Origin: Bacteroidia bacterium
Lineage (GTDB): Bacteria; Bacteroidota; Bacteroidia; NS11-12g; UBA955
DNA length: 64,000 bases
Assembly: GCA_044368575.1 (NCBI GenBank)
Contig: JBIPPH010000007.1
Coordinates: 1,180-65,179 of the forward strand
Direction of reading: 5' to 3'
The notes below the pieces were generated by a model. The model was given only the letters and a program-made list of their open reading frames with translations. It did no database searches and had not been told where the DNA came from. Shown one piece after another: positions 50,844 through 59,313 of this stretch. The position numbers were made by a program, and so were the translations under genes. Every line of letters starts with the position of its first letter. Position 1 is the stretch's first letter.

Positions 50844-51614
50844 TTATGCGTTTAAAAAGAAATTGAAACTATCGCCTCTAAGGCCTAAACGAAGGGTTTC
50901 TAATGCGATTAATTCAGTAGGAGCAATATTACCTAAGTTGATATTAGCACCATACAATTTAATGAACCATACTTGTTGGGCTTTCAATGGGGCTTCCCAA
51001 ATGATTTTCTCCAAAGGTATTTTTCTGATGATTTCAGCAACTAAGCCTGAACGCACTTCGCCAGAACCTCTAAAAACGCCAACAGTGCCACTTTCTCTGG
51101 CCTCTGCAATCACTTTCCAAACACCAGCTTGAATTTCCTTTTCCATCATATCTATCCATTCATATGGCGGAATGATTTTTTCTGCATCTTTAGATCCAAC
51201 TTCAGAAATAACTGTAAAATCTTTGGCTAAAGTTCTGATGTATTCGCACTTGTCTTCGTGGGCTATTTCCATTGAACCATCGCTCACTTCAACATGATCA
51301 ATGCCGAAGGTGTCTAGAACTCTTCTATAATCATCAAACTGATTTCTGATCGCATATGCTTCAAATAAGGTGCCGCCGAAATACACTTTAAATCCGGCAT
51401 CTTTATACAATTTGATCTTCTCTTTTAATTGTGGGGTAACGACAGCTGTGCCAAAACCTAATTTGAGTAAATCAATTAAGTGTTGTCCGTTTTCTATAAG
51501 TGCTTCAGCCTCTCTTAAACTTAGGCCTTTGTCCATTACCATGGTTAAACCACTTTCGCGAGGCTTAACAGTCCTGTCAGGTAAATTTGAAATATTAAAT
51601 ATATCCTTATTCAT
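50844..51614 (-). CDS. (2R)-phospho-3-sulfolactate synthase (ComA) family protein
   Basis: 256 aa. N-terminal PDRTVKPRESGLTMVMDKG matches the ComA-family opening block (KPR..GLT.V.DKG). TIM-barrel-like periodicity. Recognised from memory. Confidence 0.6.
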   Translation of the reverse strand: MNKDIFNISNLPDRTVKPRESGLTMVMDKGLSLREAEALIENGQHLIDLLKLGFGTAVVTPQLKEKIKLYKDAGFKVYFGGTLFEAYAIRNQFDDYRRVLDTFGIDHVEVSDGSMEIAHEDKCEYIRTLAKDFTVISEVGSKDAEKIIPPYEWIDMMEKEIQAGVWKVIAEARESGTVGVFRGSGEVRSGLVAEIIRKIPLEKIIWEAPLKAQQVWFIKLYGANINLGNIAPTELIALETLRLGLRGDSFNFFLNA

Positions 51615-53061
51615 TGTTTTGGTTCTGATAAATAATGATGAGTTGATGTATGTCTTCGTCTGCTAATAGTTCGGCATCAAACCATTTTAGGGTGTCGATT
51701 CCGTCTTCAAAGTTATGAATTAATTGTGAAAGCAAACGCTCTTTGTTTTGTTTACTTGGGTTTTCAATAAAATTAATGGCGCCATGAACAATGTCTAGCT
51801 CTTCTTGGTAGTTTTTGGTTTTATCGACAATTTGAAAAATATCTTCTAATAAATCTGTGTAAAGCTCTCTAAAGAAGAAGCCCGCTAGTTCGACCCAGTG
51901 TTGCAGAATGAGATTAGGAGAGGTTCTTTTAAGGTTATTATAAATGTGTTCTAATTTTAAGTACTCTAGATTAAAAGCAAGACATTGGAATAAGCAGAAG
52001 ATATTTTCGAAGTCATCCTTGTCAATTTTAAAAACACTGTTAAAAAATACACTTGCTTTTAAATAGTCGTGTTCAAGCATGTAAGATTTACCTTTTAAAA
52101 ACAAGTATTCAGAAATCAGGTTTTCCATTTCTTTTGCTTGATCTAAGTAATAACGGGCTTTAAGAGGCTCTTCTGCTTTAATGTAACATCTAGCGGCGCA
52201 TACATATGGATACAAATCATCTTGGTCTTTAAAGGATGACAAGAAATGATCAACAGCTAATTGATAAGCTGCTTTTTCTTCGTATAAAGCCCCTAAATTA
52301 AAATGCGCATTCTTGGCTTCACTGCTAGATAAAGTTGCATACTCATATGCAGATTCAGCTTCTAGTTTATTGCCAGTGATTTCATGAAATTTACCCAGGT
52401 TAAACCAACTGTAGTGATCGTAAGGATTAAGATCTATCCTTTTTTTGAAATAGTCAATCGCTTGTTCATATTGATTAATTGCAATAAAATTAAAAGCCAA
52501 TTGCTCGTATAATGATTCGTTTTTTGGGTAGCTCTGCAAACCTTTTTCTATTAATAGATTGGCTTGTTTGATTTGGTTGTTCTGACACAACATTTGAGCA
52601 TATGAAGTATAAATATCTACCACATATTCTTCATCGTCAAATTCAGAGTATTCTAGCGCCAATTTGAAGGATTCTTCTGCTTCATTAATTCTGTCTAATT
52701 CTAAAAGTGTTTCAGCTTCAACTTTTAAGATGAATGAATTATAGGGTTCGTAAAGTTTTGCAGTTTTAATGTAGTCAAGCGCTTCTTCATATTCGTGAGC
52801 ATGAGATAATATATGCGCTTTTTCAAGCAATACACTTGACTTATTTGGATATAGCATAAGACCATGGTCTACAATTTTGACATGGTTATTATGCTGACCT
52901 GAAAAGAAAAAATGATTGGAAAGAATTTCAATATCCTCTTCAGAAAAATAAACAGAATCATCTTGCTCTAGTAATTTAAATCGCTCCAGACAATCCTTAA
53001 CGCGCTCTTTGGCAGCCATGTCATCATACTCCATTTCGCTATCATCGTAGTCGCCAAACAT
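51607..53061 (-). CDS. TPR-repeat protein
   Basis: 484 aa, all-helical, with multiple 34-residue W/L-G-Y-A-F-P-type repeats (e.g. AYEYATLSS..., LGALYEEKAAYQLAVDHF). Confidence 0.7.
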   Translation of the reverse strand: MFGDYDDSEMEYDDMAAKERVKDCLERFKLLEQDDSVYFSEEDIEILSNHFFFSGQHNNHVKIVDHGLMLYPNKSSVLLEKAHILSHAHEYEEALDYIKTAKLYEPYNSFILKVEAETLLELDRINEAEESFKLALEYSEFDDEEYVVDIYTSYAQMLCQNNQIKQANLLIEKGLQSYPKNESLYEQLAFNFIAINQYEQAIDYFKKRIDLNPYDHYSWFNLGKFHEITGNKLEAESAYEYATLSSSEAKNAHFNLGALYEEKAAYQLAVDHFLSSFKDQDDLYPYVCAARCYIKAEEPLKARYYLDQAKEMENLISEYLFLKGKSYMLEHDYLKASVFFNSVFKIDKDDFENIFCLFQCLAFNLEYLKLEHIYNNLKRTSPNLILQHWVELAGFFFRELYTDLLEDIFQIVDKTKNYQEELDIVHGAINFIENPSKQNKERLLSQLIHNFEDGIDTLKWFDAELLADEDIHQLIIIYQNQNNE

Positions 53062-53131: not shown

Positions 53132-53163
53132 AAAAAAACCGTATCAATCGATACGGTTTTTTT
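53132..53163. terminator. Bidirectional rho-independent terminator, 3' of the H1-like gene
   Basis: A7 run, then CCGTATC, AATC loop, GATACGG, then a T7 run. Perfect 7-bp stem flanked by A- and T-runs. Confidence 0.85.
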
Positions 53164-53184
53164 GAGAGGTTAACAGTTAAAGAA

Positions 53185-53490
53185 TTACTTCTTTTTAGCT
53201 GATTTTTTTGCTTTAGCTTTTGCTTTTGGAGCAGCTTTAGCTTTAGCCTTTGGAGCAGCTTTAGCTTTAGCTTTTGCTTTTGGAGCAGCTTTAGCTTTAG
53301 CTTTAGCCTTTGGAGCAGCTTTAGCTTTTGGAGCAGCTTTAGCTTTCGCTTTAGGAGCAGCTTTTGCTTTAGCTTTTGCTTTTGGAGCAGCTTTAGCTTT
53401 CGCTTTTGGAGCAGCTTTCGCTTTAGCTTTTGCTTTCGGTGCTGCTTTAGTAGCTTTTGCTTTAGCAGCTGGTTTTTTGGTTGTTGCCAT
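53185..53490 (-). CDS. Lysine/alanine-rich histone H1-like protein (KAKAAP repeat)
   Basis: 101 aa, about 45% Lys and 45% Ala. Imperfect tandem AAPKAKAKAK repeats. ATG start. 24 nt downstream of the SET-domain gene. Confidence 0.75.
   Translation of the reverse strand: MATTKKPAAKAKATKAAPKAKAKAKAAPKAKAKAAPKAKAKAKAAPKAKAKAAPKAKAAPKAKAKAKAAPKAKAKAKAAPKAKAKAAPKAKAKAKKSAKKK
53200..53470. repeat. Nucleotide tandem-repeat tract (imperfect 6/12/30-nt units GCTTTAGC/CTTTGGAGCAGCT) encoding the KA repeats
   Basis: Direct reading shows the same 27-30-nt block repeated at least 8 times along the gene. Confidence 0.8.
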
Positions 53491-53514
53491 ATTATATATT
53501 AATTAATGGGTTTT

Positions 53515-53895
53515 TTAATTGAGATCGGCATGCATGTCACCGTAATCAATGGTGATTTCTTCACCAGCTTTGATTGTTTTTAGTGCTGTAAATTCCATCA
53601 TACCTGTTTTTAAATTTATGTTGTAATCTGCATTCGATTTTTTCGAATGGTTGTATAAAGATCCAAATCCAAGAAGTAGTGCCACACTTTTTTTTCTAGA
53701 GTTCCAAACAAAAGTATAGTTCTCTAAAATATGTCCTACTAGTTGTTGATGTTCTTTACGCGTCAACTCGATTACAGGGCAAAGTTCAATAAGATCACCT
53801 TTCTTTAAAACTTTAGATGTAAACACACCCCTTCCTTTGTGTCCTGCATTCGATACAATTAAAAAATCGTTTTTAACCAATTGTTCTTTTTTCAC
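53515..53895 (-). CDS. Minimal SET-domain protein-lysine N-methyltransferase
   Basis: 126 aa. GHKGRGVFTSKVLKKGDLI (SET N-terminal GxG block), YNHSKKSNADYN (the NHSCxPN equivalent) and GEEITIDYGDM (the ELxFDY equivalent). Similar in size to viral vSET. GTG start. Confidence 0.8.
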   Translation of the reverse strand: MKKEQLVKNDFLIVSNAGHKGRGVFTSKVLKKGDLIELCPVIELTRKEHQQLVGHILENYTFVWNSRKKSVALLLGFGSLYNHSKKSNADYNINLKTGMMEFTALKTIKAGEEITIDYGDMHADLN

Positions 53896-53913
53896 TTATT
53901 TAGTATATCGGTT

Positions 53914-53921
53914 CAAAATTA
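53914..53921 (-). promoter_or_regulatory. Candidate Bacteroidota sigma-A -7 element (TAnnTTTG) for the SET-H1 operon
   Basis: The minus strand reads TAATTTTG, ending about 18 nt upstream of the SET start codon. No convincing -33 TTG was found. Confidence 0.3.
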
Positions 53922-54020
53922 TAGAACATTCCGAAACTATTGTGAATGCTATAAAATATCTATTAACAACTTATCAAAAACGACTTGTAAAAGAAGTCAA
54001 ATTAGTTGACTAAATATTTT

Positions 54021-54066
54021 AAAAAATAATTCACATTAGCATTTCAATTCACTTTTAATGTGAATA
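54021..54066 (-). terminator. Putative terminator or operator: 10/11-bp inverted repeat with an internal direct repeat
   Basis: AATTCACATTA (54028-38) pairs with TAATGTGAATA (54056-66) across a 17-nt loop that itself contains AATTCAC. On the minus strand the hairpin is followed by AUUUUUU. It lies 3' of the PepC-GNAT operon and 5' of SET. Confidence 0.35.
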
Positions 54067-54101
54067 AAATCTAAAATAAATTGAAAAATTTGAAGAATAA
54101 A

Positions 54102-54611
54102 TTAACAAGACTGGATAAGCTTCTTCATGATAAAATCATTCATAACATATCCATTTCCAATATCAAAATCTGCAACAGATTCTATTGTAAATCCATTTTT
54201 AAAATAGAAGTTTATACTTTTAAAATTTTGTCTGTTAACTGTTAATTTGAAACAATTAAAACTTGATTTTGAATCTTTATTGATGGTAATTTCAAGTAAG
54301 TTCAAACTTTTGCTACCTACTGATTTTCCTTGATATTCAGGCAATATGTAATACTTATTGATGAAACATATTTGATCTGCTTGAAGGGTATAGGCAATAA
54401 ATCCAACGGCTTGTTCATGGCTCATTATAAAATTAAAAACTTGCCCTTCATTTACTTGTTTGATCAAAGCATCATGGCTGTAAAATTTATTCAGCATGTA
54501 TTGAACTTGAGCTTCACCTATGATATCAATATAATGGTGTTGCCAAATGATTTTAGCCATAGCGGCTATGTCATCTAATGCAGCATCAGATGTTTTTAAA
54601 AGGCTAATCAT
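54102..54611 (-). CDS. GNAT family N-acetyltransferase
   Basis: 169 aa. Acetyl-CoA-binding-like Q/R-x-x-G-x-G/A region (YQGKSVGSKSL) and GNAT beta-strand periodicity. 7 nt downstream of pepC. Confidence 0.55.
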   Translation of the reverse strand: MISLLKTSDAALDDIAAMAKIIWQHHYIDIIGEAQVQYMLNKFYSHDALIKQVNEGQVFNFIMSHEQAVGFIAYTLQADQICFINKYYILPEYQGKSVGSKSLNLLEITINKDSKSSFNCFKLTVNRQNFKSINFYFKNGFTIESVADFDIGNGYVMNDFIMKKLIQSC

Positions 54612-54618
54612 TTAAGAT

Positions 54619-55809
54619 TTAGTTAATGCCTAATTTTTTTGCAATGTCTTTTGGAATTGCATTTTTATGAATAAAAATATTGAGTGTTTTGTATCTGAAA
54701 TACGGCATAGAACAATACAAATATCCACCACAGTCATTACCAGTTCCCCAACTATTTTTTATTTTAAAGTAGGTATTGCCATTTTGATCTTTCACCAAAC
54801 CAGTAGCATGCATGCCATGGTCATCAGTGGTTTGATAATTATCAAAGGCAATTTGTCTGAGTGAATCATTGATGATTTTTTCAGCCATAGGTTTATCAAA
54901 TGCTGAACCTGATCTTAATGCGCCAGCATCATTAAAAGCTTTGTTGTCTTTGCCAACTTGAGTAATTAAAGAATCGTGAACAGGCACAATTGCAACACCA
55001 TTTTTAAATGAAAATCCTTTTTCACTTACGTCTGCACCCCAAGCCCAAGTGTAACCATTCATTAGTGAAGATTCAGCTACCTTCTGAAGTTCATCAAGTG
55101 GTAAATTATAGCTTTGCATCATGGCCCAATTGTCTTGAACTTCAATTGCAAAACTGCTGTAATAAGGGTGGTGAGTAAAAGAAGTTAAAGACACATAGTC
55201 CTTCATATTTAATCCTAAATATTGAGCATAAGTTTGCGGTGTATAGGTTTTGTTGTCAACTGTAAATGTTTTAGGAACGGCACCTAAATAGGCATCAATA
55301 GCGCCTTCGAAGGCTGGTTTCCATGCAGTTGTTAATTTGCCTTGAGGGTTGTTTTTTACAGCATCAACTATACCTTTTAATACAGCATCCATTTCAGCAT
55401 GATTGTGTTTATCATAACCATAATTTAAACCTTTGTATGCTGATTCAGGCACTATACCATAATGTTGAATCACCCATGGTAAATCTAAAAATGCACCGCC
55501 TGGTCCAAAATTATGAAGGCCATTCATACGCACATACATGTCTGCTTTTCCAACATAGGCATTGCGCACAACAAACATTTCACTCAAATTGAATTTACCT
55601 TTTCCCATTCTCATCAATTCACTTTCAAAAAAGGATAAACTTGAAAAGCTCCAACATGTACTAGTTCTGCTTTGATCTTGCACATCTTGAGCATCAAGAT
55701 TGGCCATTACTTTGAATAAGTAGCCGCCGTTCTTTTTGTTTCTTAAAGTGTCTTGAGCGTTTGATTGAGCACAGATTAGTGTGGTAAGGCAAATGAATAA
55801 GTATTTCAT
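54619..55809 (-). CDS. C1 family cysteine peptidase (aminopeptidase C / bleomycin-hydrolase-like), secreted
   Basis: Catalytic Cys in QSRTSTCWSFSS, His in TDDHGMHATG, Asn/Trp in KIKNSWG. Signal peptide. Confidence 0.75.
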   Translation of the reverse strand: MKYLFICLTTLICAQSNAQDTLRNKKNGGYLFKVMANLDAQDVQDQSRTSTCWSFSSLSFFESELMRMGKGKFNLSEMFVVRNAYVGKADMYVRMNGLHNFGPGGAFLDLPWVIQHYGIVPESAYKGLNYGYDKHNHAEMDAVLKGIVDAVKNNPQGKLTTAWKPAFEGAIDAYLGAVPKTFTVDNKTYTPQTYAQYLGLNMKDYVSLTSFTHHPYYSSFAIEVQDNWAMMQSYNLPLDELQKVAESSLMNGYTWAWGADVSEKGFSFKNGVAIVPVHDSLITQVGKDNKAFNDAGALRSGSAFDKPMAEKIINDSLRQIAFDNYQTTDDHGMHATGLVKDQNGNTYFKIKNSWGTGNDCGGYLYCSMPYFRYKTLNIFIHKNAIPKDIAKKLGIN

Positions 55810-55845: not shown

Positions 55846-56307
55846 ATGGAGAATAAGACAAATAATATTGAAGCCTTAAATTTTGAATGTAAAGTATTAG
55901 TGTTTGGTTCAGAAGATCAGCAACTAAGTTTACGATTAAGAGAGCAGGTTTTAAGAGCACCTCTAGGTTTAACATTTTCAGAACAAGATCTTCTGCATGA
56001 AGATGAACAAATTCACATAGCGGGGTATTCAAACAATAGCTTATGTGCCATACTATTACTTAAACCAGATGGCCATGCGCTTAAGATGAGACAAGTTGCT
56101 GTAGAACCAATATTTCAAGGCAAAGGCATTGGTAAAACATTGGTTCGATTTGCAGAGCAGTTGGCTCAAATGGAAGGCTATTCCAAAATCCATTTGCATG
56201 CACGAGATACTGCCATTCCCTTTTATTTGAGTTTGCGTTATCATCTGCAAGGAGAAGGGTTCTCTGAAGTTGGCATTCCGCACCACTACATGTATAAAGA
56301 TCTTTAA
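55846..56307 (+). CDS. GNAT family N-acetyltransferase
   Basis: Motif A QGKGIGKTLVRFAEQ (Q/RxxGxG/A). 153 aa. Confidence 0.7.
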   Translation: MENKTNNIEALNFECKVLVFGSEDQQLSLRLREQVLRAPLGLTFSEQDLLHEDEQIHIAGYSNNSLCAILLLKPDGHALKMRQVAVEPIFQGKGIGKTLVRFAEQLAQMEGYSKIHLHARDTAIPFYLSLRYHLQGEGFSEVGIPHHYMYKDL

Positions 56308-56388
56308 CTTGTAAATGCAGGCTTTCATGGAATTTTTCTGACAACATCACATTTTTAATTATTTTTGACCTTCTATACTTTTCGACAA

Positions 56389-59313
56389 ATGAAACAATTA
56401 AGTTTATTCTTATTAATGGTATTGGGCTTGAACCTATCGGCTCAAGTTAACTACAATACCTATGGCAAACGAACTCACGGTAATTACACCTATTCTGTAG
56501 TTACAGGTGATCCTACCCAATCAAGATGGTATGTATTGCCAAATGGTTTGACAGTGATTTTAGCAGTCAACAAAGACATGCCTAGAATTCAAACTATGGT
56601 GGTTACCAAAGCTGGTAGCAAAAACGATCCTTCAGACAACACGGGTTTAGCACACTATTTAGAGCACATGTTGTTCAAGGGTACAGATAAATATGGTACT
56701 CAAGACTATGCTAAAGAAAAAGTATACTTAGATCAAATTGATGCTTTGTATGAACAATATAACAAAACACAAGATCCAAGCAAACGTCAATCCATCTACA
56801 GACAAATCGACTCAGTGAGTGGTTTGGCTTCAAAATACAGTGTTGCCAATGAGTTTGATAAAATGTGTCAAGGTATTGGCGCTCAAGGTACCAATGCTTT
56901 TACCAGTGTAGAACAAACTGTTTATATTAATGATATTCCATCCAACAGAATACACCAATGGATAGAAATTGAATCAGAAAGATACAGAAATCCAGTTTTG
57001 AGATTGTTCCATACTGAGCTTGAAGCTGTGTATGAAGAGAAAAATATTTCATTAGACAATGATGGAGAAGAAGCCTATGAAAAAATGATGGCCTCATTAT
57101 TTAAAGCACATCCTTATGGCACACAAACCACAATTGGTACAGTTGAGCACCTTAAAAATCCATCTTTGATTAAAATTAGAAATTACTTCAACACGTATTA
57201 TGTGCCTAATAATATGGCAGTGATTATGGTGGGTGATTTTGTGCCGGAAGAAGTGATTGAAATGGTTGACAAACATTTTTCATACATGCAAGCTAAACCA
57301 GTTCCGCCTTTCAATTTCCAAATGGAATATCCTAGAGGAAGACCTGATAGTATTTCTGTGGTAGGTCCTGATGCAGCCAATTTAATGTTGGGCTGGCGTT
57401 TTGATGGCGCTGCTTCAAGACAAGCCATATTATTACGCATAGTAGACTTATTGCTTAACAACAGCAAAGCAGGTTTAATTGATTTGAATTTGGTGAAGGA
57501 GCAAAAAGTATTAAGCGCGAATTCTTCTCCTGAAATCATGAAAGATTATTCTGTTCATTTCTTAATGGGTAAACCAAAAGAAGGTCAAACTTTAGAAGAG
57601 GTTAAAGAGCTTTTATTGGCTCAAATCAATAAAATCAAAAAAGGTGAATTCGACGAAAATTTACTTAAAGGTATCATCGCCAACGCAATGGTTGAGAATA
57701 TTCAAAAGTATGAAGACAACCAAGGGGTAGCATTTGATTTATTAGATGCTTTTGTTACCGATAGAGCATGGAAAGATGTTTTGAATATCAATTACGAAAT
57801 GTCTCAAGTGAAGAAGCAAGAAATTGTAGATTTTGTCAATGAATTTTACACCAATGGCTATACAGTTGTCTATAAGCGCACAGGTGAAGATACTAAGCAA
57901 AATAAGATTGAAAAACCTGCTATCACTGAAGTAGAGTTAAACCGCGATAAATCATCTCAATTTGTAATTGATTTATTGTCAGAAGAGGTAGATTCTATCC
58001 ATCCTGCTTACTTAGATTTCAATAAAGATTTGTCTAAAGGAAAAATTGGCAATGTTGAATTGTTATACAAAAAGAATGACAAGAACCAATTATTCAATTT
58101 GTATTACTTAGTAGATATGGGTAGATATAATTTCAAAAAATTACCACTTGCCTTAGAATACTTGCAATTTTTAGGTACCGATAAATATTCGGCCAATGAA
58201 TTAAGTATGAAGTTTTATCAGTTGGCTTGTAATTTTAGTATCAGTGCTGGCGAAGATCAAAGCTATTTAACTTTAACAGGTCCTCAACAAAATTTCAATG
58301 AGGCCTTGGCTTTATTCGAAGATTTATTACAAAATGCAAAACCAGATAATAAAGCTTTAAAAGAGTATGTAGGCAGAATTTTAAAATCAAGGGAAGATGC
58401 TAAATTAAACAAACGCATGGTGTCTTCAGCCTTAAGTACATATGCTTTATATGGTGCTAATAATCCTAGAACCTATATTTTATCTAATGAAGAATTAAAG
58501 GCCTTGACTGCTACTGAATTGGTAGGTATAATCAAAGGCTTCTGCAATTTCAAACATCAAATTTTATACTATGGCCCATCAGATCAAACAGTCATTTCAG
58601 CTGATATAGCCAAATTACATAAGCAACCAAGCCAGTTCTTACCAACCCCTAAAGCTGTTGAATTTAAACCACTTCAATACACTAAAAATACAGTGTACTT
58701 TACCCATTTTGATATGGTTCAGGCTGAAATTAATTGGCGCTCTGGTGCTAATGCGTTTGATTTAAATAGATTGCCAATTGTATCAGCTTATAATGAATAT
58801 TTTGGTGGAGGAATGAGTAGTGTTGTTTTCCAAGAAATCAGAGAATCTAGAGCATTGGCTTATTCTACTTATTCAGTATATAGTGCGGCAAGCGAAAAAA
58901 ATAAAAATGATATTGCATTAGCTTATGTTGGCACCCAAGCCGATAAACTTAATGATGCCATCAAAGCGATGACAGAATTACTTACCAATATGCCTGAAAA
59001 CGAAGAGAGTTTTAATCAAGCTAAGCAGGCTATTTTAAGCAATATAGAATCTGAAAGAATCATTAAAAGTGGCATCCTATTCCAATATCTTGATGCCCAA
59101 GATAAAGGGGTAGACTATGACTACAGAAAAATGGTTTATGAAACAGTTAAGACCATAACTTTTGATCAAGTAAAAGCCTTTCAGATGCAGAACATTAAAA
59201 GCCGTAATTGGGGCATTGCTGTAGTTGGTTCTAAAGACAAAATCAAAGAAGCAGATTTAAAACAATATGGTGAGTTTAAAGCCGTAAGTTTAAAAGAGAT
59301 TTTTGGTTATTAA
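56389..59313 (+). CDS. M16 family (pitrilysin/insulinase-like) zinc peptidase, secreted
   Basis: HxxEH zinc motif in GLAHYLEHMLFKGT. About 975 aa, consistent with tandem active and inactive M16 halves. Signal peptide from the ATG at 56389. Confidence 0.8.
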   Translation: MKQLSLFLLMVLGLNLSAQVNYNTYGKRTHGNYTYSVVTGDPTQSRWYVLPNGLTVILAVNKDMPRIQTMVVTKAGSKNDPSDNTGLAHYLEHMLFKGTDKYGTQDYAKEKVYLDQIDALYEQYNKTQDPSKRQSIYRQIDSVSGLASKYSVANEFDKMCQGIGAQGTNAFTSVEQTVYINDIPSNRIHQWIEIESERYRNPVLRLFHTELEAVYEEKNISLDNDGEEAYEKMMASLFKAHPYGTQTTIGTVEHLKNPSLIKIRNYFNTYYVPNNMAVIMVGDFVPEEVIEMVDKHFSYMQAKPVPPFNFQMEYPRGRPDSISVVGPDAANLMLGWRFDGAASRQAILLRIVDLLLNNSKAGLIDLNLVKEQKVLSANSSPEIMKDYSVHFLMGKPKEGQTLEEVKELLLAQINKIKKGEFDENLLKGIIANAMVENIQKYEDNQGVAFDLLDAFVTDRAWKDVLNINYEMSQVKKQEIVDFVNEFYTNGYTVVYKRTGEDTKQNKIEKPAITEVELNRDKSSQFVIDLLSEEVDSIHPAYLDFNKDLSKGKIGNVELLYKKNDKNQLFNLYYLVDMGRYNFKKLPLALEYLQFLGTDKYSANELSMKFYQLACNFSISAGEDQSYLTLTGPQQNFNEALALFEDLLQNAKPDNKALKEYVGRILKSREDAKLNKRMVSSALSTYALYGANNPRTYILSNEELKALTATELVGIIKGFCNFKHQILYYGPSDQTVISADIAKLHKQPSQFLPTPKAVEFKPLQYTKNTVYFTHFDMVQAEINWRSGANAFDLNRLPIVSAYNEYFGGGMSSVVFQEIRESRALAYSTYSVYSAASEKNKNDIALAYVGTQADKLNDAIKAMTELLTNMPENEESFNQAKQAILSNIESERIIKSGILFQYLDAQDKGVDYDYRKMVYETVKTITFDQVKAFQMQNIKSRNWGIAVVGSKDKIKEADLKQYGEFKAVSLKEIFGY

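Follow-up and report, generated by a model that had tools for sequence, protein, structure and literature searches.

The window, by which we mean the whole 64-kb stretch of DNA that was analysed, carries two adjacent genes on the same strand, together with a set of non-coding elements around them (Table 1). The first gene encodes a small SET-domain protein and the second, a repeat protein that consists almost entirely of lysine, alanine, and proline (hereafter, the K/A protein). The initial annotation had described a 101-aa Lys/Ala ORF 24 nt downstream of the SET ORF and a 206-nt region upstream of the pair, and both were found as described. The K/A gene was also predicted by gene callers. Rfam families and tRNAs were not found anywhere in the 64-kb window. 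A defence-system or phage origin was considered and rejected, as there were no PADLOC or PHROG matches.

Table 1. Coordinates of the SET-K/A pair, its associated elements, and the following gene in the window
Feature	Position	Strand	Description
TPR gene	51607..53061	(-)	Next gene after the terminator, same strand as the pair
Intrinsic terminator, predicted	53132..53163	(-)	14-bp hairpin followed by a T-run, with an A-run on the other flank; predicted end of the SET-K/A transcript
3'UTR motif ACTGTTAACCTCTC (consensus ACTTTTAACCTCTC)	53164..53177	(-)	Between the K/A stop codon and the terminator
K/A gene	53185..53490	(-)	101-aa Lys/Ala/Pro repeat protein, 9.9 kDa, pI 11.6, net charge +39.5
SET-K/A spacer	53491..53514	(-)	24 nt; conserved motif AACCCAwTTaATTAATATATAAT
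SET gene	53515..53895	(-)	Predicted minimal SET-domain protein-lysine methyltransferase; 126 aa, GTG start, pI 9.2
Upstream intergenic region of the SET gene	53896..54101		206 nt
-7 promoter element TAATTTTG	53914..53921	(-)	Ends 18 nt before the SET GTG start
Upstream box TTTGATAAGTTGTTAATA (consensus TTTGATAAnnTGTkAATA)	53961..53978	(-)	Columns invariant or near-invariant in 15 loci
Palindrome TAGTCAACTAATTTGACT (AGTCAAC-n3/4-(T/G)TTGACT)	53995..54012	(-)	About 75 nt upstream of the -7 box

Properties of the SET and K/A proteins

The SET ORF matched the Pfam family SET (PF00856) with an E-value of 8.3e-16 and 58.8 bits (cut-off 22.4) over profile positions 1-105 of 105. This match had been set in advance as a check on the claim that the 126-aa protein carries all the signature blocks, and the claim was borne out. 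The GRGVF (residues 21-25), NH (82-83; YNHS), and EEITIDY(118)G motifs are invariant across 30 homologues; in their alignment, G21, R22, G23, V24, F25, N82, H83, E112, E113, and the catalytic Tyr Y118 show no variation. In a PDB profile alignment, the motifs line up with GYGVF, FNHS, and EEITISY105 of vSET. A total of 612 homologues were retrieved and, where the source names them, they are called 'SET domain-containing protein-lysine N-methyltransferase'. The best PDB profile match was Set7 (5h6z, 6.8e-26), followed by vSET (1n3j, 2.5e-24).

The AF2 model of the SET protein had a pLDDT of 86.5. Its top Foldseek match was vSET (3kma; TM 0.74/0.88, 39% identity), and the best 50 of the 399 PDB matches at E<=0.001 were all SET-domain structures. 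At the level of a model match, the protein is predicted to have the SET beta-fold, the knot-like C-terminal arrangement included. It is of the minimal vSET type, as it consists of the core only, has a single Cys (C39), and lacks the Cys-rich pre-SET and post-SET regions and an i-SET insertion. The fold and the complete set of active-site motifs suggest that it is a catalytically competent enzyme. SET proteins of this clade are basic (net +3 to +8) and end in an invariant DMH(A/S)DLN. Out-group minimal SETs, in contrast, are mostly acidic (mean net -6). If a +39 substrate docked by simple electrostatics, an acidic rather than a basic enzyme would be expected. The relatives include homologues from Methanosarcina, Bacillus, and Halobacillus, at about 42-48% identity.

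The K/A protein contains 39% K, 45% A, and 10% P (94% Lys/Ala/Pro overall). Its layout is MATTKKPAAKAKATK-(AAPKAKAK[AK])n-KKSAKKK, and the gene is made of 24/30/54-nt tandem units. A short N-terminus rich in K/A/T/P precedes the repeats, which start by about residue 16. Across the clade loci, the protein varies in length from 67 to 131 aa; the 67-101 aa spread among contigs with an identical SET may reflect assembly artefacts. An AF2 single-sequence model gave one long helix with a pTM of 0.22, which suggests that there is no compact fold.

The K/A protein had no Pfam or NCBIfam match at E<=0.1 and none in PHROG or PADLOC. At the same threshold, the winged-helix globular domain of linker histone H1/H5 (PF00538) was not found. 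The Hc1 (PF07432) and Hc2 models gave no match either, the Hc2 negative being a weak one for a low-complexity sequence. A structured N-terminal domain of the AlgP/PhaF type was looked for without a curated model and was not found; the repeat part is analogous. A homology search yielded one match at E<=0.001. The weaker matches share the repeat alone, as tails on L30, L21, L29, SWIB, and Hc1 proteins. Because the sequence is of low complexity, homology places the K/A protein in no family. The AAPKAKAK repeat is also found fused to an Hc1 (PF07432) domain (protein P0135) and to ribosomal-protein and SWIB domains, all of which are nucleic-acid binders; P0135 has only the repeat tail in common with the K/A protein of the window. 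The K/A protein is H1-like in composition only, and the likeness is limited to the H1 C-terminal tail. Its earlier description as 'histone-H1-like' can be kept for composition alone, given that no linker-histone, Hc1, or Hc2 family matched.

Coding strand and conserved non-coding elements

In the K/A ORFs, 2217 of 2400 codons (92%) encode K, A, or P. The first and second codon positions are so held and the third positions vary freely (T526/A371/G123/C33 in the Ala codons); in the N-terminus, the variable columns fall 2/2/7 by codon position. The K/A 'gene' could nevertheless be a non-coding or antisense-coded tandem DNA repeat misread by gene callers, since the composition forces two antisense frames open and some loci contain a 90-160-aa antisense ORF with a start codon. 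Since one antisense frame shares its third positions with the sense frame, the codon-position test does not tell the two apart by itself, and the strand was therefore called from the conservation of start codon, termini, and terminator. The sense ATG and the N-terminus (MAT[TSPK]KK in most loci; MATKKT in the subgroup L004/L005/L095/L096) are kept in every complete locus, as is a KKSAKKK-type C-terminus in the sense frame. By contrast, no antisense start codon spans the repeats in 12 of the 23 distinct loci, the window included; where antisense starts are present, they are mostly TTG or GTG and shift in position. The terminator and the spacer also point in the sense direction. An antisense or alternative-frame gene was rejected on these grounds, and misread repeat DNA is a very improbable account of the K/A ORF. 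As judged from these comparisons, the ORF is on the coding strand and under protein-level constraint, in agreement with the initial annotation, which had taken it for a protein-coding gene.

Several elements upstream of the SET gene are conserved together with the pair. The TA..TTTG columns of the -7 element TAATTTTG are invariant in 15 of 15 aligned loci, and a sigma-70-type scan flagged the same area. The -7 consensus of Bacteroidota sigma-A is TAnnTTTG, which we take TAATTTTG to fit. A conserved CAATAGTTTG element was considered as the -33 box and rejected, being no more than about 11 nt away from the -7 box. Further upstream, the palindrome TAGTCAACTAATTTGACT is nearly invariant in the alignment of 15 clade loci, irrespective of the upstream gene, and its half-sites co-vary (AGTAAAC/GTTTACT in loci L092/L093; AGTCAAT/ATTGACT in locus L097). 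It occurs once in the 64-kb window, as does the upstream box TTTGATAAGTTGTTAATA. The palindrome is not followed by a consistent T-run and hence does not serve the upstream gene as a terminator. A dimeric regulator may use it as an operator, and the upstream box is possibly a regulator site as well.

The spacer between the two genes is 12-49 nt long in 16 distinct loci, most of which contain (A)CCCAATTT...ATAAAT-ATG, a putative translation-initiation or processing region for the K/A gene. In the window, SET and K/A are in frame across the 24-nt spacer. Stop-codon read-through fusing the two was rejected, since the spacer length modulo 3 differs among loci and read-through is therefore not conserved. 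Downstream, 10 of the 13 distinct 3' regions from the clade contain the 3'UTR motif ACTGTTAACCTCTC. The terminator hairpin has a dG of -16.5 kcal/mol (z = -4.66), and none of 200 shuffles folds as well. A hairpin occupies the same position in 13 loci, with compensatory double changes in 7 of the 10 consensus pairs. It had been called a bidirectional terminator. A hairpin with an A-run and a T-run is indeed present, but it is bidirectional in shape only; with the next gene (TPR) transcribed from the strand of the pair, an evident use is seen for just one direction.

Linkage of the pair and its changing neighbours

A K/A ORF lies directly downstream of the SET gene, on the same strand and 12-49 nt away, in 31 of 31 other clade loci (5 from species genomes, 20 from metagenomes, and 6 contigs with an identical SET). 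The species-genome scan covered 185,579 genomes, and the 5 clade loci are among those kept. Loss of either gene was seen in none of the clade loci. This recurrence makes the arrangement more than a product of chance. Co-orientation, the short spacer, the linkage in 31/31 loci, and the conserved upstream blocks and terminator argue for a conserved two-gene unit with its own promoter and terminator architecture. The SET clade is monophyletic, with identity of at least 56% within the clade and at most 51% between clades. In 81 loci whose minimal SETs are more remote (<=54% identical to the window SET), no K/A ORF was found beside the SET, and the nearest out-group SETs (P0040 and P0043) had no Lys/Ala-rich ORF beside them. 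Other basic partners next to out-group SETs were rejected as spurious ORFs. Because all the linked loci share one ancestor, the 31/31 linkage amounts to a single evolutionary gain, and given this single gain, function is argued only by the persistence of the pair through rearrangement. The module is limited to one narrow clade of Bacteroidia known only from MAGs. Synteny in related genomes, which had been named at the outset as a check, was found in every clade locus and is not general to Bacteroidota.

The flanking genes were replaced on both sides of the pair, with at least four contexts upstream and at least four downstream. The upstream neighbour varies among a GNAT, a 490-aa membrane protein, a MarC-like protein, and a PurQ-like protein; the downstream neighbour varies among a TPR gene, a convergent gene for a 760-980-aa peptidase, and other genes. 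SET and K/A stay together where SET identity drops to about 60% and TPR identity to 45%. The promoter-region blocks, the spacer motif, and the terminator are kept with the pair while the neighbours change, which upholds the earlier view of a self-contained module. The TPR protein that often follows the pair is very acidic (net -45). A NASP-like identity for this protein was rejected, as it gave generic TPR matches only, beyond which there are its charge and position.

Known relatives and proposed function of the pair

No earlier report of a SET-K/A operon was found in the literature, in keeping with its initial description as uncharacterised. PBCV-1 vSET (A612L; PDB 1n3j, 3kma), the best structural match, resembles the window SET in size (about 120 aa), in consisting of the SET core only without pre-SET/post-SET zinc clusters, and in its GxG, NH, and EEITI(S/D)YG motifs. 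It differs in being a viral H3K27 methyltransferase that acts on host histone H3 and has no linked substrate gene, and its tail has YW at the C-terminus, where the window clade ends in DMH(A/S)DLN instead. Schizosaccharomyces pombe Set7, an H3K37 methyltransferase, is likewise a minimal core and is the best profile match among solved structures; unlike the window SET, it is eukaryotic, has a nucleosomal histone substrate, and lacks an operon context.

Prokaryotic SETs that act on histone-like proteins had been put forward as precedents, and these are on record. Methanosarcina mazei Go1-SET, a small prokaryotic SET, methylates its own chromatin protein MC1-alpha in vitro, and Chlamydophila pneumoniae cpnSET binds and methylates the endogenous Lys/Ala-rich, H1-like Hc1/Hc2 (PMC3980110, PMC10117894). 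Identity of the Methanosarcina SET homologues to the window SET is about 42-45%. Unlike the K/A protein, which is a repeat polycation, MC1 is folded, bends DNA, and is methylated at one lysine, and no K/A-rich ORF was found within 4 kb of the Methanosarcina SET loci. The chlamydial case is linked to the window by the AAPKAKAK repeat, which also tails the Hc1-domain protein P0135. However, cpnSET is larger than the window SET and is also regarded as a secreted effector, and the K/A protein has no counterpart of the defined Hc1 N-terminal domain (PF07432). In Chlamydia, SET and hct are not known to share an operon. According to a review (PMC3980110), eight lysines of histone H1 are trimethylated by Bacillus anthracis BaSET, a small bacterial SET. 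As described there, the substrate is H1-type and Lys/Ala/Pro-rich, like the K/A protein, but is the H1 of the host in infection, whereas the window organism is environmental and has its candidate substrate encoded by the adjacent gene. The window SET shares 44-48% identity with homologues from Bacillus and Halobacillus. For the K/A protein, the nearest parallels are the KPAA-type repeats of AlgP/PhaF, which are disordered, highly positive, DNA-binding, and unstable in repeat number (PMC9239181). These and the histone H1 tails share Lys/Ala/Pro tandem repeats with the K/A protein. H1 carries a winged helix and AlgP/PhaF carry helical N-terminal domains, whereas the K/A protein is repeat only. 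Unlike the K/A protein, none of the three is encoded with a methyltransferase.

The explanation that we favour, with a probability of roughly 0.55, is that SET-K/A is an operon of a lysine methyltransferase and its co-expressed polycation substrate, probably a DNA-binding one. The pair would be transcribed as a separately promoted and terminated two-gene operon. Its first product would be a minimal (vSET-type), catalytically competent SET lysine methyltransferase, and its second, an abundant-type, intrinsically unstructured polycation with about 39 lysines in AAPKAKAK repeats and the composition of the histone H1 tail, the AlgP/PhaF C-terminal domain, and the Hc1-family tails. The K/A protein would bind a polyanion, most probably chromosomal DNA, and SET would use S-adenosylmethionine to methylate the lysines of its partner. 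Methyl-lysine would keep its charge with altered hydration, hydrogen bonding, and bulk, and would block acylation and trypsin-like cleavage; methylation would thereby adjust the tightness of nucleic-acid condensation by the polycation, or the lifetime of the polycation itself. We infer the enzyme activity and the role of K/A as substrate from the linkage of the two genes and the known activities of homologous SETs; nucleoid or DNA binding of the K/A protein and a physiological consequence are presumed in the same way.

A different functional link is possible, although not likely. The K/A protein might not be the main substrate but a tether or cofactor bringing the basic SET to DNA, ribosomes, or RNA, where it would methylate other proteins, e.g., HU-like proteins, ribosomal proteins, or elongation factors. 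SET enzymes are well known to have substrates outside chromatin, the switch of the clade SETs to basic charge fits a nucleic-acid-associated enzyme, and K/A/P tails are common on the ribosomal proteins L30, L21, and L29. Yet a 39-lysine protein beside a lysine methyltransferase is the simplest substrate, relatives of the window SET methylate Lys-rich chromatin proteins, and no other candidate substrate gene is consistently linked in the loci read. The K/A protein may also be something other than a nucleoid protein and organise a different polyanion (RNA, or polyphosphate or storage granules), with SET methylation tuning the association. AlgP, with a KPAA-repeat C-terminal domain (net +55), is located at polyphosphate granules and spaces them, PhaF tethers PHA granules (PMC9239181), and their repeat composition is the same as in the K/A protein. 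We regard this as rather unlikely, because AlgP and PhaF owe their specificity to structured N-terminal domains whereas the K/A protein is pure repeat, and ppk or pha genes were not found nearby in the loci read; as AlgP also binds DNA, it overlaps with the favoured explanation.

Mere inheritance of gene order in a narrow clade, with SET and K/A acting independently, would agree with the presence of the module in one monophyletic clade only and with some wider synteny, namely a GNAT upstream and a TPR gene downstream in many loci. It appears quite improbable, as neighbours on both sides were replaced several times with the pair, spacer, upstream blocks, and terminator left intact and neither gene ever lost. 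The favoured substrate explanation can also be extended to a dedicated, regulated 'chromatin-state' module. A regulator at the conserved palindrome and box would turn on the polycation together with its own lysine-methyl writer, and graded multi-site methylation would set the degree of nucleoid compaction. Methylation would possibly be opposed by acetylation from the frequently adjacent GNAT, and the acidic TPR protein may chaperone the +39 polycation. That all these parts hold jointly is doubtful.

Whether bacteria deliberately modify their own DNA-packaging proteins was listed as an open question in a 2022 review (PMC10117894). The few known cases (cpnSET/Hc1 and Go1-SET/MC1-alpha) rest on in vitro work with guessed substrates. 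Here, the genome itself nominates the substrate, as an enzyme and a 39-lysine, H1-tail-like protein lie in one predicted transcription unit that was kept despite repeated rearrangement of its surroundings. SET-K/A is thus a likely bacterial writer-plus-substrate pair for chromatin-protein methylation. Because the clade is narrow and uncultured, work on it must be heterologous; the two-gene system is small and cloneable, at <800 bp in total. The pair raises the questions of how a minimal SET handles a repetitive multi-lysine substrate, how lysine methylation affects polycation-DNA condensation, and how such a module is regulated. If the chromatin-state reading were true, the pair would represent an independent bacterial invention of histone-tail-like control of genome packaging by post-translational modification.

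The minimal SET enzyme

The gene pair proposed in the initial annotation is present: a SET ORF and the ORF of a Lys/Ala/Pro repeat protein (K/A) are separated by 24 nt, and 206 nt of intergenic DNA lie between SET and the preceding GNAT gene (stop at 54102). Features of the locus are listed in the table.

Features of the SET-K/A locus and its neighbours in the window
Feature	Position	Strand	Description
ComA-like gene	50844..51614	-	
TPR protein	51607..53061	-	484 aa; Asp/Glu-rich N-terminus, pI 4.63, net charge about -45
Terminator hairpin	53132..53163	-	14 bp; A-run before, T-run after
3'UTR motif	53164..53177	-	ACTTTTAACCTCTC/ACTGTTAACCTCTC; between K/A stop codon and terminator; 10/13 loci
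K/A ORF	53185..53490	-	101 aa; N-terminus MATTKKPAAKAKATK, then AAPKAKAK(AK) units, C-terminus KKSAKKK
SET ORF	53515..53895	-	GTG start, 126 aa
TAnnTTTG block	53914..53921	-	Invariant in 15 regions; ends 18 nt before SET start codon
Upstream box	53961..53978	-	TTTGATAAGTTGTTAATA (TTTGATAAnnTGTkAATA); conserved in 15 loci
Palindrome	53995..54012	-	TAGTCAACTAATTTGACT = TAGTCAAC-n3-TTTGACT; conserved in 15 loci
GNAT acetyltransferase	54102..54611	-	
C1-family aminopeptidase (Peptidase_C1_2)	54619..55809	-	
GNAT acetyltransferase	55846..56307	+	
M16 peptidase	56365..59313	+	

The SET assignment of the 126-aa ORF was borne out by a Pfam SET match that covers the whole model (E 8.3e-16; 58.8 bits, cut-off 22.4). 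The database holds 612 relatives at E ≤ 0.001, and the named ones are SET domain-containing proteins or protein-lysine N-methyltransferases. In the alignment of 30 relatives (39-77% identity), the invariant residues are GRGVF (21-25), Y60, GFGSLYNH with N82-H83, and E112, E113, and Y118 of the EEITIDY motif. The best solved structures in a profile search were Schizosaccharomyces pombe Set7 (5h6z, E 6.8e-26) and PBCV-1 vSET (1n3j, E 2.5e-24), which led the rest by a wide margin. The AlphaFold2 model (pLDDT 86.5) superposed best on vSET (3kma; TM 0.74/0.88, 39% identity), with Set7 second. Because of the domain match, the invariant residues, and the agreement with Set7 and vSET in profile and model, SET is assigned to the known family of minimal SETs, to which it is a new addition, as a core-only enzyme with a catalytic apparatus complete by its motifs and a predicted activity. 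The SETs paired with a K/A ORF (hereafter, the clade) end in an invariant YGDMH(A/S)DLN that adjoins the catalytic Tyr; relatives instead carry a longer, W-containing tail. The clade tail could shape substrate entry.

The repeat-only K/A protein

K/A is a 9.9-kDa protein of 39% K, 45% A, and 10% P, with a pI of 11.6 and a net charge of +39.5. No match was found in Pfam, NCBIfam, PHROG, or PADLOC, and homology search is uninformative owing to low complexity. AlphaFold2 predicted a single featureless helix (pTM 0.22); K/A is therefore without a globular fold. The histone-H1-like label holds for composition and fails for family membership: K/A matches none of the linker-histone, Hc1, and Hc2 families, although for Hc2 low complexity weakens this negative. 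What K/A shares with the H1 C-terminal tail and the AlgP/PhaF repeat domain is composition alone; set beside H1 tails, Hc2, and AlgP/PhaF, it is a compositional analogue, but repeat-only. In weak matches, the AAPKAKAK repeat is appended to a protein with an Hc1 domain, to ribosomal proteins L30, L21, and L29, and to SWIB-domain proteins, all of which are nucleic-acid binders.

The 24 distinct orthologous ORFs use codons for K, A, or P at 2217 of 2400 positions (92%), and alanine third positions are T526/A371/G123/C33. The N-terminal 18 codons align without gaps, and variable columns there number 2/2/7 at the three codon positions. The codon test alone cannot fix the strand, since third positions coincide in the sense frame and one antisense frame; the repeat itself keeps two antisense frames open. 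An antisense start codon covering the repeats is absent in 12 of 23 distinct loci, the window included, and in the remaining loci it is a TTG or GTG at shifting positions. In all complete loci, the sense frame opens with an ATG and a conserved N-terminus (mostly MAT[TSPK]KK, but MATKKT in the subgroup L004/L005/L095/L096) and closes with a Lys-rich C-terminus, after which comes a sense-oriented terminator. These features fix the strand, speak against an antisense gene over the repeats, and show K/A to be conserved as a gene. Automatic gene callers also predict the sense ORF.

K/A length ranges from 67 to 131 aa across loci. The coding DNA in the window is a tandem array with units of 24/30/54 nt. 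Contigs with a SET identical to that of the window encode K/A proteins of 67, 91, 99, and 101 aa, and those with a SET 98-100% identical (L105-L110, L081-L084, L100) encode 67, 83, 91, 93, 95, 99, and 101 aa. This spread could reflect true slippage or a population polymorphic in repeat number, or else collapse of the repeats when short reads were assembled. In L003 (4359..4559), the ORF decays into KANAKANANANA repeats at the contig end, probably an artefact of assembly where the contig terminates in a repeat.

Persistence of the pair and its control regions

The SET alignment was scanned against one genome per species (185,579 species), and 80 loci were kept. No locus from the window's own species, and none above 77% identity to its SET, is included. 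Of these 80, precisely the five with the most similar SET (L001-L005; SET 64-77% identical; all Bacteroidia/Bacteroidota MAGs) carry a K/A-rich ORF immediately downstream in the same orientation, against 0 of the 75 others (SET ≤47% identity), which include Saprospiraceae, Algoriphagus, Patescibacteria, Endozoicomonas, Methanosarcina, Halobacillus, and Bacillus. Clade-specific motifs searched in metagenomes retrieved 24 loci, with a K/A ORF in 20/20 clade-SET loci (≥61% identity) and 0/4 out-group loci; the ORF was also present in 6/6 further contigs with a SET identical to the window's. Downstream ORFs of the nearest out-group SETs, P0040 (53%) and P0043 (52%), are unrelated and not Lys/Ala-rich, and a search for another small basic partner beside out-group SETs found none. 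The linked SETs are monophyletic (identity at least 56% inside the group, at most 51% to outsiders). Conservation is not general to Bacteroidota: among the loci kept, the module is confined to a single clade, known only from MAGs. As this counts statistically as a single gain event, the argument for a SET-K/A function rests on the pair's persistence.

The neighbours vary. Upstream of SET lies a GNAT gene (window, L001, L002, L081-083, L085-089, L091), a 490-aa membrane protein gene behind a phosphatase-like gene (L004, L005, L095, L097), a MarC-like gene (L003), or a PurQ-like gene (L092). Downstream of K/A lies the TPR gene directly (the window's species, L082-084, L100, L088, L090, L099), a convergent 760-980-aa peptidase (L001, L002, L005, L087, L089, L091, L095), or other genes (L092, L093); in L001, L002, and L005, the TPR gene is about 3.4 kb further downstream, behind the peptidase. 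Across these contexts, identity goes as low as about 60% for SET and about 45% for TPR, and SET or K/A is lost or separated in no clade locus. The wider neighbourhood consists of ordinary housekeeping genes of the chromosome, followed by genes for Fe-S cluster assembly further along in matching contigs. No integrase, transposase, phage gene, tRNA, or Rfam family was found in the 64-kb window, and GC content is 33-40%.

Three upstream blocks are constant in 15 aligned regions, whatever gene precedes SET. The palindrome, whose half-sites co-vary in L092/L093 and in L097, and the box are both unique in the 64-kb window and look like candidate regulator binding sites. The TAnnTTTG block matches the Bacteroidota -7 promoter consensus. 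The SET-K/A spacer is 12-49 nt and retains the motif ACCCAATTT...ATAAAT; a conserved read-through fusion is excluded because the spacer length departs freely from multiples of three. The 3'UTR motif is rich in pyrimidines, in which it is similar to the 3' end of 16S rRNA with its CCUC. A hairpin with a T-run follows K/A in all 13 loci, with compensatory double changes at 7/10 consensus pairs; as RNA, the window's hairpin has a dG of -16.5 kcal/mol (z = -4.66), and 0/200 shuffles fold as well. The terminator had been called bidirectional. Its flanking A-run and T-run fit that shape, but two-sided use is not evident here because the next gene, TPR, is on the same strand. The blocks, spacer motif, and terminator, kept with the pair while neighbours differ, appear to make the pair a regulated transcription unit, self-contained as had been proposed.

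Proposed function of the SET-K/A operon

The best reading is that SET would methylate lysines of its co-expressed polycationic partner, and that K/A would bind DNA or another polyanion. It draws on the linkage, the 39 candidate lysines, and the activities of homologous small SETs. According to reviews, chlamydial Hc1 is both bound and methylated by cpnSET, MC1-alpha is a methylation substrate of Go1-SET, and histone H1 is trimethylated at eight lysines by BaSET (PMC3980110; PMC10117894). The Methanosarcina, Bacillus, and Halobacillus homologues are 42-48% identical to the window SET. In AlgP, the K/P/A repeats bind polyphosphate granules as well as DNA (PMC9239181), so either could be the polyanion of K/A.

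The charge of the enzyme bears on this reading. SETs with a linked K/A gene are basic, at pI 8.8-9.5 and net +3 to +8 (n=14); most out-group minimal SETs are acidic (mean net -6, down to -14, n=16). Basic clade SETs do not fit simple electrostatic docking to K/A. Either SET may sit on nucleic acid and methylate K/A bound there, or K/A may be a tether rather than the substrate.

Two neighbours could belong to the same process. The acidic TPR protein, with generic TPR matches only in the databases, could be a chaperone or counter-ion partner of the K/A polycation. In more than 11 clade loci, a 169-aa GNAT immediately precedes the SET promoter region, but it is missing there in L003-L005 and L095-L097; its family matches are weak, RimI or spermidine-acetylase-like only. 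It is suggestive that a lysine acetyltransferase should adjoin both a polylysine protein and a lysine methyltransferase.

The observation of a SET and K/A gene pair is confirmed, and its interpretation as a writer/substrate module is supported as far as sequence evidence reaches. A 2022 review regards as still open whether bacteria specifically modify their own chromatin proteins (PMC10117894). The full-text literature searched, on SET domains, BaSET, and H1-like repeat proteins in Bacteroidota, held no description of an operon coupling SET to K/A; many subscription papers, notably comparative-genomic SET reviews, were outside its scope, and prior mention is possible. What seems new is the operon that joins a minimal SET enzyme and a repeat-only K/A protein.
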